Notes: a model not told the origin generated them from the sequence alone. Counted from the stretch's first letter, positions 10,774-19,619 are shown. The stretch is DNA of 20,412 nucleotides from a virus (IMGVR_UViG_2541047739_000001); one strand, 5' to 3'. A program made the numbers and translations.

Positions 10774-11403
10774 TCATTTTCTTTTCAGCACCAGGCGTAA
10801 CTGATGCGTCATGGCTTTCATCATCTGCACTGGTAATTTTTCCCGGTACATCCGGTCCCGTTCACGTTCAAAGGTTTCTGCCAGCGGTCCGGCAGTCGGA
10901 ATTTTCACCACTTCAATTGGCAGACGGTGGCGTTTCGGCCTCCCTTTGCTGTCAGCGCCGGTGGACGATGGTGCCCACGGCATACGCTGCATCACATGCC
11001 AGCGTCCGTTAGCCAGCCGGGTGATAAAGGCGTCCGGGATCCGTCTTTTCCCCACAATCAGCACACTGCCTCCCCCTTTCAGGGCCGCACGCTGTCCTTT
11101 CTTTCTCCGTTTTCTGCGGGAAAGTCGAACGCGGGCCTCCCCCAGTTTGATGGCAGGCAGGTTGCCGGTATTGATGTAAACCTTTGCATAAACCTTATCC
11201 GGTCGTGCCGGACTTAACCGGATGCGGGCACGGATAAGACGGCGGGGAACGGCCAGCTCCCTGGCAACTGAAGTGGCCGTTTTCGCAATGATGGCCCCCG
11301 CCACGCGGTTCAGTGTCGTGGCAGAGGCCCGGGGAACGGCACGGCGGTCAATTGCATCCAGATTTTTCATGGCCTGCGCCAGACCTTTTATTGCCATGCT
11401 CAT
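10774..11403 (-). CDS. Z: Tail completion protein Z
   Basis: 209 aa, MSMAIKGL...SRRKRRKKGQR..LKGGGSVL.VG.RRIP.AFI..L.NGRWHVMQR matches lambda Z as recalled. ATGA overlap with the upstream gene. Confidence 0.9.
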   Translation of the reverse strand: MSMAIKGLAQAMKNLDAIDRRAVPRASATTLNRVAGAIIAKTATSVARELAVPRRLIRARIRLSPARPDKVYAKVYINTGNLPAIKLGEARVRLSRRKRRKKGQRAALKGGGSVLIVGKRRIPDAFITRLANGRWHVMQRMPWAPSSTGADSKGRPKRHRLPIEVVKIPTAGPLAETFERERDRMYREKLPVQMMKAMTHQLRLVLKRK

Positions 11404-12087: not shown

Positions 12088-14067
12088 TCAGGCCACCGAC
12101 GAACGCACCAGCCCGCGCCAGTCAAGTGGTGCCACTCCGGCATCAATACGGATTTTTGTGGCAATGCCGTCAGTGGTGAAACCTTCCTGCTGATCAATGT
12201 ATGGAGTGTCCACACCATCCAGCCAGGCCACTTCAATGGTGTCAGTGCCCTGTGCCGCCGCCAGATACCAGGTTTTCGGATCTGCCGCATCAAGACGCGC
12301 TTCTGCAATCACCTCAGCAAAGTTCTGGATGGGGTTAATGACACCGGCGTTTGCATCCGCCCCTTTCACACTGGCCGATTTGATGGTCTGGTTCGCCACC
12401 GTCTCCAGTGCCACCGGTACCAGCATAAAGGCCGGACGGATATTCAGGGCGCGATCGCCTTCTTTCTGCAGGCGCATCATCTGACGGGCCGCATCCAGTC
12501 CGGAAACGGAAATCCCACCGGTGGCAATATTTTTGTGATCGGCATGGAACAGCGCCTTACCGTCTGACAGTTTCGGGTTATCCGTCAGCACCTTGTAAAC
12601 CAGGTCACCAATCGTTGCCTTCGCCGCACGCCCCATCTTCATCGGCACGTCCACCAGCATATTCAGATCATCATTGATAATGGCCTGGCGGGTGATGGAG
12701 AAAATCTCCCCGTAAGTGGCCAGTGCAATGGTCTCCTTGCGATCTGAGGTGGTGATGTATTTATACTCCGCCCCCTCACGAACCTGGCGCAGAGAACCAA
12801 AACCGCCCATCCCCACGCGATACGCTGTTTTGAAGTCTGACAGGCGTCCCTTACGGGTCCACTTCTGGAAGGTTTCTTCTGATTCCTCCCAGCCCTGGAT
12901 CAGCCCCTTGTTCGACACATCCAGCAGAATATTGCCAAAATCAGAGGTGCTGTGCGTCAGCGCCAGCCCGACCATCTGCATGGGGTTATAACTGGCCACC
13001 CCAATACCGCGCTCCGTCAGTGACATGCGAGCCCATTCACGCAGGGTCATCCCGTTATAGGCGTTATCCTTCTCGACATTTTCAAATCCGGCACGGGCCA
13101 GCATCGCCTGGCGGATCCCGTCCCCCACAAAATTGCCGTTTCCGGCATAAATATGGGCCGGTGTGTTTTTGTTGGTCGGCGATGACTCCTTGCCCATTTC
13201 ATTCAGCAGACGTTCACGGGCCATTTCCAGCGAACAGTCAGGATCAGCCACACACTGCGCCTGAAGCGCCTGATAGCGACCGCCAAACATGGCAAACAGA
13301 TCGTTAATGCCTGACATGCGGGCTTTCTGCTCAGCCATAACGCGGGCGCGAATGGTCGCCTCATCAGACACTGCCGGTACCGGTGATGGTTCTGTTACCG
13401 CCGGTGCAGGGATTGTCACTGTGGTATCACGCGGGGCACTGTTGTATGGCTGCGTGATCATATTTCGGATGGATTCCGGCATCTTTTTAAATTCCTCTGT
13501 ACGTTTTGACTGAATACATGCCATTGCCTTAACGGCTGGCGTCACCTGGTCTGCAAATCCGTGTGCCAGACACTCGGCACCGGACATCCAGGTCTCATCC
13601 GCCAGCATGGCGGCAATTTCATCGGTAGTTTTTCCGGTTTTCTGCGCATATACCGGCACCATAACCGACTCAAGTTTGTCCAGACGTTCGGCATAAGTGC
13701 GCATTTTCTCCGCATCACCACCGCTGATCCCCCAGGGTTTATGGATCATCATGAAGGCATTTTCCGGCATAATGACCGTGTCACCGGCCATCGCAATCAG
13801 GGATGCCATCGAGGCGGCAACGCCATCCACATACACGGTAATGGCCGCACCGTGATTTTTCAGGGCATTAAAAATGGCGATGCCTTCAAAAACATCGCCA
13901 CCCGGTGAGTTGATGTGGAGATTAATGTGGGTGATATCACCCATGGCATTCATATCGCTGACAAACTGCTTCGCGGTAACTCCCCAGAAACCAATCTCGT
14001 CATAAATATAAATATCCGCCTCACCCTGACCACCCGCCTGCATCCTGAACCAGGATTTATTCTTCAT
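12088..14067 (-). CDS. Prohead protease (ClpP/S49-like) fused to major capsid protein
   Basis: Single open frame. The N-terminal domain has protease motifs (DIYIYDEIG, HINLHINSPGG, VDGVAASMASLIAMAG); the C-terminal ~350 aa look like an HK97-fold capsid domain. The supplied ORF begins at a GTG (14259) deep inside the portal gene. I take ATG 14065-14067 (MKNKSWFRMQAGG); ATG 14041-14043 is an alternative. Confidence 0.8.
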   Translation of the reverse strand: MKNKSWFRMQAGGQGEADIYIYDEIGFWGVTAKQFVSDMNAMGDITHINLHINSPGGDVFEGIAIFNALKNHGAAITVYVDGVAASMASLIAMAGDTVIMPENAFMMIHKPWGISGGDAEKMRTYAERLDKLESVMVPVYAQKTGKTTDEIAAMLADETWMSGAECLAHGFADQVTPAVKAMACIQSKRTEEFKKMPESIRNMITQPYNSAPRDTTVTIPAPAVTEPSPVPAVSDEATIRARVMAEQKARMSGINDLFAMFGGRYQALQAQCVADPDCSLEMARERLLNEMGKESSPTNKNTPAHIYAGNGNFVGDGIRQAMLARAGFENVEKDNAYNGMTLREWARMSLTERGIGVASYNPMQMVGLALTHSTSDFGNILLDVSNKGLIQGWEESEETFQKWTRKGRLSDFKTAYRVGMGGFGSLRQVREGAEYKYITTSDRKETIALATYGEIFSITRQAIINDDLNMLVDVPMKMGRAAKATIGDLVYKVLTDNPKLSDGKALFHADHKNIATGGISVSGLDAARQMMRLQKEGDRALNIRPAFMLVPVALETVANQTIKSASVKGADANAGVINPIQNFAEVIAEARLDAADPKTWYLAAAQGTDTIEVAWLDGVDTPYIDQQEGFTTDGIATKIRIDAGVAPLDWRGLVRSSVA

Positions 14068-15559
14068 GCTGGCTGTCGGTGGCCTGCTGACGCTGTTGTT
14101 CAGTTCCGGCACTGTTGCCTCCTTTGTCGTTGACGGGGTCAGTATCAAAGACCAGCCCCAGTCTGCTGTTTTCATCAATTTCAGCCTTGCGGCGACGTTT
14201 GACCTCATCCGGATTGCGCCCGCCGGCACGCACCCAGTCAGATTCTGTCGCTGCACCACCCCGGATCTGAATTCTCCAGGCTTCAGCTTCCTTAACCGGG
14301 TCGATCCACGGCATCACCGGACCGGAATACGTCGCGTTATATAGCGTTTTCATCTCCACATCCGCCGGAATTTTCAGCAGACCTGCCGCAACCACCATAT
14401 TCAGCCATGTCCGGTACACCGGGCGGGTTACCGCGCCAATAAAACAGTCCTGCAGGATCAGGTAACCATCCGTGGACTCGACCAGCTCCTGCCGCTGGGC
14501 ACTGTAGGTGCCGTTATAGTTACGCGCCGCACTGGAAAAACTCAGACGACTGCCCGCTGCCACTGCACGCAACTGGCCGTTGCGGAAAGTTTCAAGGTTG
14601 GGATTGGGACGGTCTGATTTGACCATGCCGATATCCTCGCCCTTGCGCAAATCGTCATAAATAATACCCGGGGTGATATGGACTTCCCGGTCGGTATCTT
14701 TGATCCCCGGATCTTCATAGTCCTGTCCGTCCCCTTTACGGATATACAGTCCCAGCGCCGCGGCAATACGCGCAGCCGTCAGTTCCGCATCCTCATATTC
14801 CTTAAGGGCACTGATCCGCATCAGCACCCCCGATAACATGGATGAGCCTCGCGTCTGATGCAGACGGCGTATGAACTTCAGGTGGATCATTTTTCCGGCA
14901 GCGATTTCTTTCGTATCACTCTGCCGACCGCTGACCGGATAATTTTTATAAACCAGATATTTTTTCGGTCTTCCCCACTCATCAAGAAAAACCCCCTGAT
15001 TCAGCCCGGCGGATTCATCAGTGCGCATGGGAACAAAATCCGGCTCCATCGCCTCAAGCCAGAATGGCACTCCCGCCGTCCGTTCCAGACCGTTTCCCGC
15101 ACCACTGACCATCTGCGCAAACACTTCACCATCCCGCAGCCAGGTCCGCAGCAGTAAACGTTCAAGCACGGGACGGGTATACTGCCCTGTCACATCCGGA
15201 CTCACGGACCATTCAGCCCACAACCGGCGGATATCCGCAGCCAGCTCTGCCGCCATTTCCCCGTTTTTTCGTAATGGCTGAGGCTCCACAATAATTCCCC
15301 TGGCACCAATCACCCGCTCTTCCAGCTTGTCAAACACACCAATCACCAGGTCATGATTGATATCCAGAAAACGGGCCTGCTCCCGCAGGGAAACCGCACC
15401 GTATTTACTGAGCTGATCAGCAGAGCGATTTTCCCGCCGGGCTTTATGTGTCCGGGTCGGTTTCACCGCCTCATAGGCCATGATTAACGCCCTTGAACGC
15501 AGTCTGGCTGCTTTCCACCCGGGGGAAAACACGCCTATCACATCATCAATAATTGCCAT
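14057..15559 (-). CDS. Portal protein, lambda B-like family
   Basis: 500 aa, ATG start overlapping the W stop (TAATG). Located between W and the protease-capsid gene; the LSFSSAARNYNGTYSAQRQELVES region resembles a lambda B motif as recalled. Confidence 0.85.
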   Translation of the reverse strand: MAIIDDVIGVFSPGWKAARLRSRALIMAYEAVKPTRTHKARRENRSADQLSKYGAVSLREQARFLDINHDLVIGVFDKLEERVIGARGIIVEPQPLRKNGEMAAELAADIRRLWAEWSVSPDVTGQYTRPVLERLLLRTWLRDGEVFAQMVSGAGNGLERTAGVPFWLEAMEPDFVPMRTDESAGLNQGVFLDEWGRPKKYLVYKNYPVSGRQSDTKEIAAGKMIHLKFIRRLHQTRGSSMLSGVLMRISALKEYEDAELTAARIAAALGLYIRKGDGQDYEDPGIKDTDREVHITPGIIYDDLRKGEDIGMVKSDRPNPNLETFRNGQLRAVAAGSRLSFSSAARNYNGTYSAQRQELVESTDGYLILQDCFIGAVTRPVYRTWLNMVVAAGLLKIPADVEMKTLYNATYSGPVMPWIDPVKEAEAWRIQIRGGAATESDWVRAGGRNPDEVKRRRKAEIDENSRLGLVFDTDPVNDKGGNSAGTEQQRQQATDSQHEE

Positions 15560-15795
15560 TAAAACCTCGCCAGTTTAAATCCTGGTTTTCCCCGCCTGCG
15601 GCTCACCATCGCGGCAAGCCTGCGTTCCCACTCCTGACGTCCGGCGCGGATCTGAGAAAGGCTTTCCAGCGTCAGTTGCTGTCCGTTGAAGGTGACAGAC
15701 TTCCCCTCCAGTACGGCCATTTCCGCTTCACGGTACCGCTGTATCATTTCTCTGGCTTCTTCTGTGCTCACAACCAGCCTCCTGATGTTATCCAT
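15559..15795 (-). CDS. W: Head-tail joining protein W-like
   Basis: 78 aa between terminase large subunit and portal. C-terminus RRRGKPGF resembles lambda W (…RRRGPAGF) as recalled. Confidence 0.75.
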   Translation of the reverse strand: MDNIRRLVVSTEEAREMIQRYREAEMAVLEGKSVTFNGQQLTLESLSQIRAGRQEWERRLAAMVSRRRGKPGFKLARF

Positions 15796-17891
15796 GGATT
15801 ATCTTCCGCACGCTCCGTCCGCAGTTTTTTCTTCCGGCGACGGCGTTTTTCTGCCCCGGCCGTCAGTTCCGGGGATACCGTTTCACCAGAACGCTCCTGC
15901 GGGAAGACGAGCCACGTTTCCCGCTGTGCCCAGTCCGGTGCGGAGGGCCAGCGGATCTTTTCGTAACCATGCAGAACGGCAAGCGCATCCGCATAAACCA
16001 GCAGGTCAAACGCCTCGTTAGCTCCCCTGCCCGGTTTTCGCCATTTTCCGTCACTGCCGCGCTCTTCATAGGTCAGCTCATCGTAAAACCATCGCCCCAG
16101 CCAGTCGGGAAAGTGGATATAGTTCGGCCCTGGTGTGTCACGCCACAGGGCATTATTTACACGGTCCTTAAACGCATCCGTCTGAACCAGCCACAGCGCG
16201 ACATCGCCACTGGCTCTGGCACGGCGGGCACTTCTGCCGGTATTATCCGGGAAGGTACGGTTAATCAGCCTGTCACGGCGAAGTCCATCCCCCTTGAACA
16301 GAAACACCCTGTTGCCCAGTCCGTCACTCCGGCAACGACGCCAGAAACGATAGGCGTTATCTGTCACCCCGGCTTCCCCTCCCGTATCCACCGCCATGGC
16401 CATCAGACGCATGCGCACATCCGGATCAGAAGCCAGCGGCCATGTTTTATGGAACACATCCGTCAGCAACAAATCCCAGTCCTCCGGATATGCCGCCGGA
16501 TCAACCGGCAGACTTTCACCGTTGGGACTGCAGCGCAGTGAATGCCGGATGTTATAGCGATCAACAATCCAGCGTTCCCCCTGCTCTCCGTATCCGGTGA
16601 TCTGCACAACAAAACGGCGATTTTTACCGCCCTGTACGTCAACCGTTGCCTCAATAAAACGCACACCATCCGGCACAGATCGCCGGGGAAACGGCTCGGC
16701 ACGCTGTTCAAGCAGTTCACTTTTACGCTGTTCCGTGGCTGAACGGGGCAGATAGGGGCGTCCGATATCGGTGTTCACCACCGCTTTCAGGGTCTCTTCA
16801 CTGCCGGTTCGCTCATACTCTTCTTCTGCCGCCAGCAGTTTAAAAATCAGTTGTTCCCAGGTCTGAAACGCCGCAGCCGGCCCCTCCATCCAGAATGACG
16901 CAATCCGGGAATTTCGTGGCGTTCCGGTGATACTGCCGTCCGCCACCGCCCGTTCACCTTCACGAAGCCAGATCCCTTTGTTATTCAGTTCGCGTTTCTG
17001 CTCAGGGGCAATCAGCCCGCGACAATGCGGACACATCAGACGGGCAGCCTGACCGGCAGCCACAAAATCCGGGTTATTCCGGTATCCGGTCATGTTATCC
17101 ATCACCGGCTGAAAATATTCCCCGCAGTGCGGACACGGCCAGTACCACCGGCGGCGGTCTCCCCGGTTATACAGTGACAGGATCCCCGTTGTTGGCGGTG
17201 CCTCATGTGCGCCGCCACAGCGCCATTTGGTGTCAGTGATATCCCGCCCCGGCGAACTCTCGACCAGGGTCATCCCCGAGGACATAAAGGTGGTGGTACG
17301 CTTTGATGCCAGGGTGAAGGCATCCCCTTCCCCGTCCACGTTTTCAGGGAAACGGTCATAATCCGTCAGCGCCACACGACGGTAATCCGAAGAAGAAAAT
17401 ACAGTGATCGACGGCCAGCCAATCTTCAGGAAGGAGCCGTCAAGAAACATTTTATCGTGGACGTTGTTGTCATTACGGGAAGGACTGAGACGCTTACTGA
17501 CCTCCGGGCTGTGACGAAACGTTCTGGAAAGACGCGTTCTGGAGTGTTCCCGCGCCTTCGTCTCGGTCATTTGCACCACCAGCATATCCGCCGGATCACA
17601 GATGATGCCGTACACAATCCAGCCGTCAATCAGCCCTTCGGTTTTCCCGGTTCGCGCAGGTCCCACAAACACCACCGCGTCATATTCACGGGCTGATAAT
17701 GTATTAATAGGGTCAATCATATAGGGCGTCAGCGATGACTCCCACGGACCGGAAGTATTGGCTCCCCGTGGTACCCGCATATAACGCCTGATGGCTTCCG
17801 CTACTGGTAACCGGCTGGGCGGGCGAAACAGCGAGGCCACTTCGCGCCAGATATCGGATGCGCGGCTATGGCTCTCGTTCACCTGATTCAC
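15768..17891 (-). CDS. A: Terminase large subunit (lambda gpA family)
   Basis: 707 aa. SLFRPPSRLPVAEAIRRYMRVP aligns with the lambda A N-terminus as recalled; a Walker A-like motif VGPARTGKTE is present. Start is GTG at 17889-17891 overlapping the small-subunit stop (ATGTGA), with GAGG 7 nt upstream. There is no in-frame ATG nearby. Confidence 0.92.
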   Translation of the reverse strand: MNQVNESHSRASDIWREVASLFRPPSRLPVAEAIRRYMRVPRGANTSGPWESSLTPYMIDPINTLSAREYDAVVFVGPARTGKTEGLIDGWIVYGIICDPADMLVVQMTETKAREHSRTRLSRTFRHSPEVSKRLSPSRNDNNVHDKMFLDGSFLKIGWPSITVFSSSDYRRVALTDYDRFPENVDGEGDAFTLASKRTTTFMSSGMTLVESSPGRDITDTKWRCGGAHEAPPTTGILSLYNRGDRRRWYWPCPHCGEYFQPVMDNMTGYRNNPDFVAAGQAARLMCPHCRGLIAPEQKRELNNKGIWLREGERAVADGSITGTPRNSRIASFWMEGPAAAFQTWEQLIFKLLAAEEEYERTGSEETLKAVVNTDIGRPYLPRSATEQRKSELLEQRAEPFPRRSVPDGVRFIEATVDVQGGKNRRFVVQITGYGEQGERWIVDRYNIRHSLRCSPNGESLPVDPAAYPEDWDLLLTDVFHKTWPLASDPDVRMRLMAMAVDTGGEAGVTDNAYRFWRRCRSDGLGNRVFLFKGDGLRRDRLINRTFPDNTGRSARRARASGDVALWLVQTDAFKDRVNNALWRDTPGPNYIHFPDWLGRWFYDELTYEERGSDGKWRKPGRGANEAFDLLVYADALAVLHGYEKIRWPSAPDWAQRETWLVFPQERSGETVSPELTAGAEKRRRRKKKLRTERAEDNPWITSGGWL

Positions 17892-18364
17892 ATATCGGCC
17901 TCATCACAACAGTCAATGACTGCCTTTTCCAGTGTGTCGCGGATCTCATCAACCACAATCTGTACTTCATTCAGTTGTGATGCGGTCCACCCTCTGTCCC
18001 TTTCCAGCCGGTCAGGCCAGGTTTCCAGTACCTGAACTATCGCTTTCACCACGACAGAAAAGGACCGCCTGACATCACTGACAGGCACAAGCTGAACAGT
18101 TTCATGCTGAAATTTAAGACGCTCGCGCTCGGACTGATACCATGCCTTCCGATCATGTGGGTTCATCTCTTCATCTTCGGAAGTCGGTGGTTTTTCCAGC
18201 AACGAAATAATCAAATCCGTCAGGAGATACAGTTTTTTCTTTTCATTACTGCCTGGTGCAAGAGGAACATCCGCCATTCTGGCGGCAACAGTCTGCCGGT
18301 GCAGACCTGAAAGGGCTGCCAGTTGATTAATATTTAACTTCATATTTTTCAGCTCGCCGTCCAT
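17888..18364 (-). CDS. nu1: Terminase small subunit (Nu1-like, N-terminal HTH)
   Basis: 158 aa. ATG at 18362-18364 with strong GGAGGG upstream. KLNINQLAALSGLHRQTV resembles the lambda Nu1 N-terminal HTH (…VNKKQLADIFGASIRTI) as recalled. Sits directly upstream of the large subunit and downstream of the cos-like region. Confidence 0.85.
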   Translation of the reverse strand: MDGELKNMKLNINQLAALSGLHRQTVAARMADVPLAPGSNEKKKLYLLTDLIISLLEKPPTSEDEEMNPHDRKAWYQSERERLKFQHETVQLVPVSDVRRSFSVVVKAIVQVLETWPDRLERDRGWTASQLNEVQIVVDEIRDTLEKAVIDCCDEADM

Positions 18365-18600
18365 TTACATCCCTCCACATAAACCGCTGAACAAAAGTGG
18401 CTCTTTTTTTGTAAAGAAATGCCGCCATATAAAGATGTCGAACAAAAATCAACCGCAATCATCATCTTTTTAATGCTAAACACATTAAAAACAATAAGTT
18501 ACCATTATGATGATGATGACGATAAAATCACAAAAATGCGCCTTTTTCCGCGCCGCCCGCCCCGTGTACAGCCCCACCCCACCGGGAGGACCCGTCAGCC
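18365..18600. other. cos packaging region (cosQ-like, cosN-like and cosB-like parts)
   Basis: Minus strand reads GACGGGTCCTCCCGGTG...ACACG GGGCGGGCGGCG CGGAAAAAGG, resembling the lambda sequence around cosN as recalled. It is followed towards Nu1 by an AT-rich stretch with inverted ATCATCATC / GATGATGATGATG repeats. Confidence 0.6.
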
Positions 18601-18605
18601 AGACA

Positions 18606-18633
18606 TAAAAAAACCGCCATGATGAGGCGGTTT
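18606..18633 (-). terminator. Intrinsic terminator-like hairpin downstream of the 70 aa gene
   Basis: Minus strand reads CCGCC-TCATCAT-GGCGG followed by TTTTTTTA, about 20 nt after the stop at 18653. Confidence 0.6.
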
Positions 18634-18652
18634 AATAATCACAGGTATCAGG

Positions 18653-19154: not shown

Positions 19155-19619
19155 CTACTTAATGCACTGGGTGCGGATATATTCCTGCAATCCCCGAATC
19201 ATTCTGTCGCTGGTTGCGATTCGCTCTCTGAGGGTGAAATAATCCCGTTGAGCGGCGTCAGTAAGTCCGGGGCGGGCTGCATCATCCACGCCGGTGGTGC
19301 CGGTGGCTTCACGCACGGCTGGACAGACTGCTCTGATGCGCAACCGACGACGACCAGCGGCAATATCATCACGCAGAGCATCATTTTCAGCTTTCGCATC
19401 AGCTAACTCCCTTGAGTATTTTTCATCGAGTGCAGCAACATCACGCTGGCGCTGCTGCATATCAGTAATGGTTGCATTTGCCTGCTCCAGCTCACTGACT
19501 TTTTTATCGCGCTGCTCTTTGTAGGTTATGGCGTTATCACGGTAATGATTCAGCCCCAGACTAAGCGCACCACAGGCCACCAGCAGGGCAATGATGACCA
19601 CGCACAGTACGCGGTTCAT
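19155..19619 (-). CDS. Rz: Rz i-spanin (inner membrane spanin subunit)
   Basis: 154 aa with N-terminal transmembrane segment. NHYRDNAITYK.QRDK and RQRDVAALD.KY..ELADAKAENDALRDD.AAGRRRL match lambda Rz as recalled. Confidence 0.92.
   Translation of the reverse strand: MNRVLCVVIIALLVACGALSLGLNHYRDNAITYKEQRDKKVSELEQANATITDMQQRQRDVAALDEKYSRELADAKAENDALRDDIAAGRRRLRIRAVCPAVREATGTTGVDDAARPGLTDAAQRDYFTLRERIATSDRMIRGLQEYIRTQCIK
19199..19399 (-). CDS. Rz1: Rz1 o-spanin lipoprotein, nested in the +1 frame of Rz
   Basis: 66 aa, MRKLKMMLCVMILPLVVVGCASEQ with lipobox VVGC and proline-rich mature part; near-identical to the lambda Rz1 N-terminus as recalled. Lies entirely inside Rz. Confidence 0.88.
   Translation of the reverse strand: MRKLKMMLCVMILPLVVVGCASEQSVQPCVKPPAPPAWMMQPAPDLLTPLNGIISPSESESQPATE

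Follow-up and report, generated by a model that had tools for sequence, protein, structure and literature searches.

A probable lambda-type cos site with a variant cohesive-end core next to DUF1441-family terminase genes in an E. coli lambdoid prophage

The viral DNA analysed here, referred to as the window, is 20,412 nt long, and its gene orientation corresponds to the minus strand. It contains a cos region that sits, as in lambda, between the lysis cassette and the genes for the small (TerS) and large (TerL) terminase subunits, upstream of and co-oriented with the latter (Table 1). The two small ORFs that separate it from the Rz gene gave no match in a Pfam search and belong to PHROGs 4280 and 2571, for which no function is assigned. 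The rest of the window is a block of head and tail genes in lambda order, with uninterrupted ORFs. One of these, a 723-aa ORF (12088-14259, minus strand), fuses the head maturation protease and the major head protein (PHROG 133 and 4523), whereas C, Nu3 and E are separate genes in lambda.

Table 1. Genes and predicted cos elements, by position in the window (slashes in the cosN sequence mark putative nicks).
Feature	Position	Strand	Remarks
Large terminase TerL, 707 aa, gpA family	15768..17891	-	ATPase and nuclease domains
Small terminase TerS, 158 aa	17888..18364	-	N-terminal winged helix-turn-helix; C-terminal "W-type" TerL-binding region
R1-like site GACATCTTTATATGG	18425..18439	-	Orientation as R3; inverted-repeat pair with R2
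R2-like site ATCATCATCTTTTTAATG	18458..18475	+	Inverted relative to R3 and R1; inverted-repeat pairs
I1-like predicted IHF site TAACTTATTGTTT	18489..18501	-	Between the inverted R3 and R2 arms
R3-like predicted small-terminase site CATCATCATCAT	18507..18518	-	Start about 44-45 bp from the left nick
Putative cosN CG/GGGCGGGCGGCG/CG	18549..18564	-	Favoured 12-nt 5' overhang 18551-18562, plus 2-bp flanks
cosQ-like heptamer GGGTCCT	18587..18593	-	Identical to lambda's
Terminator-like hairpin AAACCGCCTCATCATGGCGGTTT and T run	18611..18633	-	Just upstream of cosQ
Small ORF, 70 aa	18653-18865	-	Between Rz and cos; moron-like position
Small ORF, 74 aa	18907-19131	-	Between Rz and cos; moron-like position
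Rz lysis gene	19155-19619	-	Pfam Phage_lysis; upstream of cos

A 4-kb stretch spanning the cos region is present at 100% identity in three complete E. coli genomes, those of AR_0013, CEA601S and MSB1_4I, and related sequence was found in 5194 of 5426 such genomes. The nearest phage records are VT1-Sakai (Sp15 of O157 Sakai), CP-1639, 1720a-02, ASU11 and a series of Stx2 phages. The cos type is common among E. coli prophages of the Sp/Stx type.

Read along the minus strand from 18640 to 18360, the region opens with the terminator-like hairpin and continues as GACGGGTCCTCCCGGTGGGGTGGGGCTGTACACG GGGCGGGCGGCG CGGAAAAAGGCGCATTTTTGTGATTTTATCGT CATCATCATCAT AATGG TAACTTATTGTTTTTAATGTG...AAAAAGATGATGATTGCGG...TTCGACATCTTTATATGG, up to the start of the TerS ORF at 18364. 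Reduced to its elements, this is GGGTCCT, 21 nt, ACG/GGGCGGGCGGCG, an A+T-rich stretch with CATCATCAT/GATGATGAT repeats, and the terminase genes. The first-pass annotation had proposed a cos region resembling that of lambda, and this was borne out: all the strings it quoted are present on the minus strand, the cosQ, cosN and cosB layout is complete, and position and anatomy correspond to lambda element by element. On that strand, GACGGGTCCTCCCGGTG lies at approximately 18580-18596 and the ACG at 18563-18565.

The cosQ-like heptamer is separated from the ACG by 21 nt, compared with 20 nt in lambda, and is almost invariant among 33 distinct relatives; the 7-bp cosQ is highly conserved across lambda-like phages (PMC4669245). 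A scan of the 20.4-kb window for the composite pattern GGGTCCT-N18-24-ACGGGGCGG gave a single match, and none of 100 shuffles contained it. To its right, the ACG flank and the left half of the core, GGGCGG (bp 1-6), match lambda exactly. In the fetched lambda sequence the junction reads ...GGGTCCT-20 nt-ACG/GGGCGGCGACCT, locally ...ACGGGTCCTTTCCGGTGATCCGACAGGTTACG / GGGCGGCGACCT CGCGGG..., with the right end as ...CTTTACGGGTCCTTTCCGGTGATCCGACAGGTTACG and the left end as GGGCGGCGACCTCGCGGGTTTTCGC..., so that the lambda cos sequence given in the first-pass annotation proves correct. The two cores are indeed not identical, since GGGCGG is followed by GCGGCG in the window and by CGACCT in lambda, and bp 7, 8, 9, 10 and 12 differ. 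The claim of a sticky-end sequence unlike that of lambda is upheld, while the exact 12-nt boundary given for the core is not fully supported, because the spacing to the right flank is 10 and the 12-mer includes the first two bases of the CGCGG flank.

[quoted passage not shown] Lambda-like phages possess 12-base 5' ends that resemble those of lambda, and differences at bp 7-12 are common among them, N15 and gifsy-1 being examples (PMC4669245). A literature search with the exact core strings returned only unrelated eukaryotic or primer matches, and no paper giving the core was found. In the definition of the Feiss group, cosN comprises the 12 bp and two bp on each side, and is symmetric at 10 of 16 positions (PMC4669245, PMC9026076). 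The two-fold symmetry of the corresponding 16-mer in the window, CGGGGCGGGCGGCGCG, is likewise 10/16, the lambda control giving 10/16 as published; if the ends were 10 nt long, the value would be 8/14. Within lambda cosN, bp 2 and bp 11 are important. Both were considered as markers of the overhang, but the ends of mEp460, Tritos and the Gifsy type do not preserve bp 11, which is therefore not diagnostic.

To the right of cosN lies a complex cosB, with three CATC(A/T)T-type repeats in the order forward-inverted-forward and an IHF-like site between the first two. The order R3-I1-R2-R1 with R2 inverted is that of lambda, phi80, 21 and Gifsy-1 (PMC9026076, PMC4669245). The first two repeats form an inverted repeat, ATCATCATC (18458-18466) and GATGATGAT (18509-18517), which is 100% complementary over 9 nt and extends to 21-nt arms (18459-18479 and 18499-18519) with 81% complementarity. 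The IHF consensus is WATCAANNNNTTR, and the I1-like site agrees with its reverse complement, YAANNNNTTGATW, at 8 of 9 specified positions; perfect consensus matches stand at the equivalent place in other cosB classes. In a by-eye comparison, the IHF element TAACTTATTGTTTTTAA matched lambda I1, TAACTTAATGTTTTTAT, at 15 of 17 positions. The cosB is therefore only partly unlike that of lambda, since the two have the IHF element in common but not the R sites, and the earlier statement that the cosB side is different holds for the R sites alone.

Alignment of the 33 distinct relatives of the same class reveals islands of conservation at cosQ, at the left half of cosN, over a segment comprising the right flank and R3, and at I1, R2 and R1, with variable spacers between them. 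Within these islands R3, CATCATCATCAT, is invariant and forms an inverted repeat with R2, while the R2 block AAAAAGATGATG and the R1 block TTTTTGTTCGACATCTTT are conserved. Furthermore, across approximately 136 distinct combinations of cos and TerS, collected from phage records and IMG/VR, a change in the R repeats is accompanied by a change in the first 50 residues of TerS. The TerS wing APGSNxKxKLY pairs with CATCATCAT, and GGHESNLKLY pairs with CACCATCACCAC and CACTGGTG. At the level of whole sites, TerS ...HRQTVAARMADVPLAPGSNEKKKLY, along with the Fels-1 and Eeyore versions that carry the APGSN wing, is paired with CATCATCATCAT; TerS ...ARVKNISPAGGHESNLKLY with CACCATCACCACCAGTG / CACTGGTG; and TerS ...ARLQNLPVAGGHESNLKLY with CATCACCACTACTG. 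Where the wing and helix of TerS differ, R3 is replaced by CACCATCACCAC-type repeats, and another cosB class has CACCATCACC-type sites. One cosN type is common to at least five TerS/R-site classes of this sort. It thus appears, from the conservation islands and from the covariation with the TerS N-terminus, that the R repeats are terminase sites, which agrees with the earlier suggestion that the inverted repeats could be binding sites matching the DNA-binding domain of the small terminase; these CATCATC-type repeats lie at the R3 and R2 positions around the IHF site.

The TerS ORF overlaps the start of the TerL gene by 4 nt and lies directly upstream of it. By Pfam, TerS matches only DUF1441 (PF07278; E = 6.5e-49, residues 10-150) and not Phage_Nu1 (PF07471), and it belongs to PHROG 141, terminase small subunit. 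BLASTP gave no match between TerS and lambda Nu1, a sequence comparison with PDB chains gave no usable match, and hhalign against Nu1 aligned the HTH region only, with a probability of 2.8% and E = 0.016. The hhalign result being no more than suggestive, a comparison of folds was needed for the similarity to be seen. An AlphaFold model of TerS, built from a 32-sequence alignment, has a mean pLDDT of 77.6, with 82-85 over residues 11-50. In Foldseek, this model matched 7lw0_A, residues 1-55 of lambda TerS (the gpNu1 DNA-binding domain), with a probability of 1.00, a TM-score of 0.67 and an rmsd of 2.6 Å over 53 columns, at weak E-values (0.04); MerR-family winged-helix proteins came next in the list. 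As modelled, TerS shares the winged-helix fold of the gpNu1 DNA-binding domain and is a member of a different sequence family, so that the earlier label "Nu1-like HTH" is right as to fold and wrong as to family.

TerL contains both domains of the gpA family (Pfam GpA_ATPase, E = 2.3e-81; GpA_nuclease, E = 6.2e-84). With lambda gpA it shares 24% identity (E = 6e-19), and with the large terminases of VT1-Sakai, CP-1639, several Stx2 phages and ASU11 99.3-99.6%. The DUF1441 small terminases are themselves mosaic: N-terminal DNA-binding classes recombine independently of two C-terminal types, WPDRLERDRGW and LPDILERDC, an example being P0018, which combines an mEp460-type N-terminus with a C-terminus as in the window.

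By its sequence features, the site belongs to the published lambda-like cos group, within the Gifsy/Fels-1/cdtI branch that has a DUF1441 terminase. With lambda it shares the location between lysis and terminase genes, the cosQ heptamer, ACG and GGGCGG, the 10/16 symmetry, the R3-I1-R2-R1 order with R2 inverted, a nearly identical IHF element and a TerL of the gpA family. It differs from lambda in its R sites (CATCATC-type, as opposed to CGTTTCC-type), in the placement of R3 and I1, which are approximately 5 bp and 12 bp closer to cosN in the window, and in its TerS, which is DUF1441 rather than Phage_Nu1. A comparable relationship has been described for phage 21 and lambda, in which cosQ and cosN are common to both or similar, but the R sites differ, each with a TerS recognition helix to match (PMC4669245). 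Phage 21 is unlike the window in having a Nu1 homologue as TerS and a cosN identical to that of lambda, whereas the family of the window has DUF1441 and a variant cosN. The putative cos sites of Sp4 and Sp14 of EHEC O157 Sakai have already been aligned with that of lambda (PMC2669165).

Among closer systems, the TerL proteins of the Gifsy-1/Fels-1/Gifsy-2 type, which are Salmonella lambdoid prophages, are approximately 70% identical to that of the window, and Gifsy-1 is known to have 12-nt ends that resemble those of lambda except in the right half (PMC4669245) and a tripartite cosB (PMC9026076). Fels-1 shares with the window a DUF1441 TerS (57% identity), R3 CATCATCATCAT, R2 GATGATGAT, a similar I1 and a distance of 44 nt from the left nick to R3. 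Its core, GGGCGGCAGCGG, occupies 12 nt before CGCGG, whereas the window has 10 nt there and 2 extra nt between the flank and R3. In cdtI, Tritos, mEp460, PhiR40_1 and phi458, cosQ, ACG/GGGCGGG, the right flank CGCGGAAAAAGG, a DUF1441 TerS and a TerL of approximately 71% identity are shared, while the 12-nt cores (GGGCGGGAGCGT or GGGCGGGAGCGG), the L-type TerS C-terminus and the R repeats are different. The closest systems are VT1-Sakai and Stx2 phages of O145:H28, which have the same cosB, a TerS of 97-99% identity and a TerL of 99.6% identity. VT1-Sakai and Stx2_12E129_yecE nevertheless carry one more G, giving the core GGGCGGGCGGG with 11 nt before CGCGG, and they have the TGATAACCATTATCA palindrome to the left of cosQ, where the window has its terminator-like hairpin.

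That hairpin occupies the position at which lambda and most relatives carry the TGATAACCATTATCA palindrome. In the form (A)TGATAA(T/C)CATTATCA followed by TTT, the palindrome is conserved directly upstream of cosQ in lambda and in most EHEC-type relatives; it is absent from the window (18596-18640), mEp460, PhiR40_1 and Tritos.

Taken as a whole, the region is most probably a working cos site of an E. coli lambdoid prophage with head genes of the Sp/Stx-phage type, a reading to which we would give a probability of roughly three in four. In 40 distinct sequence contexts the core of the window adjoins an intact TerS; it is the commonest form with that TerS type and is common to two cosB/TerS classes. 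After induction, Sp15, which is VT1-Sakai, yields DNase-resistant packaged DNA, in a strain in which many prophages are able to complement one another (PMC2669165), and DNase-resistant packaged DNA was likewise found for Stx2_12E129_yecE and the Stx2a phages of strain 12E129 (PMC8112680). The TerL proteins of the packaged VT1-Sakai and Stx2_12E129_yecE are 99.6% identical to that of the window, and their cos has one extra G.

The anatomy of the sequence, its conservation, the covariation of repeat and protein class, and the protein families and fold were observed directly; binding, bending, exact nick positions and overhang length are put forward by analogy with lambda. Dimers of the DUF1441 TerS, through their winged helix-turn-helix, would bind the CATCATC-type R3 and the inverted R2 across an IHF bend at I1, with R1 as an accessory TerS site. 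The bound TerS would anchor the gpA-family TerL on cosN, where it would nick the gene-sense strand after ACG (putatively at 18563/18562) and the other strand approximately 12 nt away (at 18551/18550), leaving a 5' overhang that is most likely GGGCGGGCGGCG. The upstream GGGTCCT would be used as cosQ when packaging ends at the next cos.

The principal difficulty concerns the right-hand nick. The spacing from ACG to CGCGG in the window is 10 bp instead of the canonical 12, and alignment of the relatives shows CGCGG(A/G) on the right to be conserved to the same degree as ACG on the left. A spacing of 12 is found in lambda, cdtI, Tritos, mEp460, PhiR40_1, phi458, Eeyore, mEp213 and Fels-1; VT1-Sakai and the GGGCGGGTCGG group have 11; the window, CP-1639 and Stx2_14040 have 10; and one contig has 7. 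In a comparison of 166 distinct contexts, the spacings 10 and 11 were confined to those in which TerS has the W-type C-terminus that accompanies this TerL clade, while the L-type is associated with a spacing of 12 in 43 of 43. Polymorphic spacing (at 18549-18564 in the window, and in loci L003, L010-L089, L096 and L100-L221) is seen within the lineage whose TerL proteins are at least 99% identical, with 10, 11 and occasionally 12 across prophages and satellite elements; relatives with a TerL of approximately 70% identity all have 12. Since the flank spacing varies between 10, 11 and 12 among relatives, the sequence does not fix the exact overhang.

These observations raise the possibility that the cos is functional and that the nicks fall at the flanks themselves, after ACG and before CGCGG, which would place the bottom-strand nick at 18553/18552 and produce a 10-nt end, GGGCGGGCGG, in the window and an 11-nt end in relatives of the VT1-Sakai type, with an overhang length that varies within one terminase lineage. 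CGCGG(A/G) is conserved from lambda to Fels-1 and begins at bp 13 in every relative of canonical spacing, and after a 10-nt cut the bottom strand would read TTTTTCCGCG/CCGC around the nick, just as in mEp460; the restriction of spacings 10 and 11 to the W-type TerS and its TerL clade also fits. However, the characterised lambda-like terminases of the gpA family all make 12-nt ends (PMC4669245), the symmetry would be lower, and the 10- and 11-spacing variants are served by essentially one enzyme, for which reason an enzyme that measures a distance fits better than one that recognises the flank. Moreover, TerL has little sequence specificity and is placed by TerS at R3 (PMC9026076). Nicking at the flanks is therefore the strongest of the alternatives, yet a rather improbable one.

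An overhang of 12 nt, GGGCGGGCGGCG, is accordingly favoured over one of 10 nt, GGGCGGGCGG, as far as sequence comparison allows. In addition to the precedent of the characterised terminases, the weak sequence specificity of TerL and its positioning by TerS, a 12-nt cut restores the 10/16 symmetry and makes the distance from the right nick to R3 32 nt, equal to that in Fels-1, the nearest relative with canonical spacing whose R repeats and TerS C-terminus are of the window's types. The 44 nt from the left nick to R3 are kept in both by compensating 2-nt indels. By manual count, nick-to-R3 distances among relatives are 32-35 nt, a range into which both the 10- and the 12-nt readings fall, so that this distance speaks for 12 nt but does not decide the matter, and the 11-spacing variants have poor symmetry with a 12-nt cut, no reading of them being clean. 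It is offered only as a tentative suggestion that the enzyme either measures its nicks from one side instead of reading the two half-sites or makes ends of 10-13 nt in nearly identical phages. If ends of variable length were real, prophages that reside in the same cell and are served by a single packaging enzyme would have sticky ends that do not match one another.

Several phage records bear on where virion DNA ends. The breakpoint of the cdtI and Tritos records is exactly ACG/GGGCGGGAGCGT. Besides these two, only yong2 and mEp460_4F5 in the phage collection have records that break close to cos, and none of the four has the 10-spacing core. All the contigs found with the cosB-side pattern, 35 from IMG/VR and 6 from metagenomes, read through cos, none ending there. 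In ASU11 (ON416862.2), obtained by mitomycin C induction, approximately 43 bp (TGAACACG GGGCGGGCGGCGCGGAAAAAGGCGCATTTTTTGAT) that are present in CP-1639 and span cosN exactly are missing (locus L222, positions about 320-330). This gap looks like the joined, end-trimmed contig ends of a linear virion DNA and, if so, hints that a cos of 10 spacing is cut in virions. The record of mEp460_4F5 (LR595868.1), which begins 5 nt before the expected nick, has a 9-nt core (GGGCGGGAG before CGCGG) where mEp460 has 12 nt (GGGCGGGAGCGG), reflecting either an artefact of end assembly or a real 3-nt deletion in cosN. The record of the Hafnia phage yong2 (MZ516527.1) begins exactly at the right flank, CGCGGGAAACGG, and ends ...GAGGGGGCAGCGACA; its depositors apparently assigned the cohesive end in full to the right terminus, as would fit a phage whose right nick falls directly in front of CGCGG.

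The first-pass annotation had also raised the alternative of a degenerate cos. On this reading, a 2-bp loss from cosN would render the site uncuttable or poorly cut and leave the prophage incapable of packaging itself unless helped. No relative that was isolated or propagated as a phage has so short a spacing as the window; all those fetched, including cdtI and Tritos, have 12. One relative has 7 bp only, many lambdoid prophages of the EHEC type are defective (PMC2669165), and in lambda even a 3-bp change in the spacing between cosN and cosB is severe (PMC9026076). Against this, a spacing of 10 is the majority form in this terminase clade, found in 46 of the 67 distinct contexts whose W-type TerS is intact, and with another core sequence it also occurs in satellite-like elements that would depend on packaging. 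Together with a core common to two cosB/TerS classes, the conserved subsites, the intact terminase genes, the 44-nt distance kept as in Fels-1 through compensating indels, and the packaging of 11-spacing relatives with essentially the same TerL, this makes degeneration quite unlikely.

That the resemblance to cos is fortuitous, the region being in reality a promoter or regulatory region or part of an ORF (18419-18622, plus strand), is scarcely credible: although this 67-aa ORF spans the region, hypothetical proteins are annotated across it in some phage records and there are two weak promoter-like matches, the composite motif has zero chance expectation and the whole multi-part lambda architecture is reproduced. 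Moreover, indels of 1, 2 and 3 nt distinguish the relatives within the ORF and would shift its frame, and the promoter-like matches are no commoner than in shuffles, and both the coding and the promoter readings were rejected.

As a working cos, the site would mark the point at which the prophage DNA is cut and packaged, and hence the true genome ends for annotation. It also indicates a terminase/cosB specificity class, and so bears on cross-packaging among EHEC prophages and satellites, Stx phages included. With the spacings of 10, 11 and 12, nature offers an inexpensive way of testing how the second nick of a gpA-type terminase is positioned, and this spacing polymorphism, tied to one terminase clade, is the sole part of the findings that could teach something new.

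Complete cos architectures, with a class A or class B cosB, were additionally found in small integrative satellite-like elements (loci L107, with cos at approximately 10860-11030, L110, L211, L114, L121, L161, L188, L190, L209, L239 and L243), each of which is without a DUF1441 TerS gene just downstream. They are probably PICI-type elements packaged by these terminases. One of them, L110, carries an integrase, a D5-type primase, an SSB, capsid and decoration genes like E and D of lambda, and a protein of the Phage_Nu1 family. The cores in these elements include GGGCGGGAAG, GGGCGGGAGG and GGGCGGAGGGG, among others.
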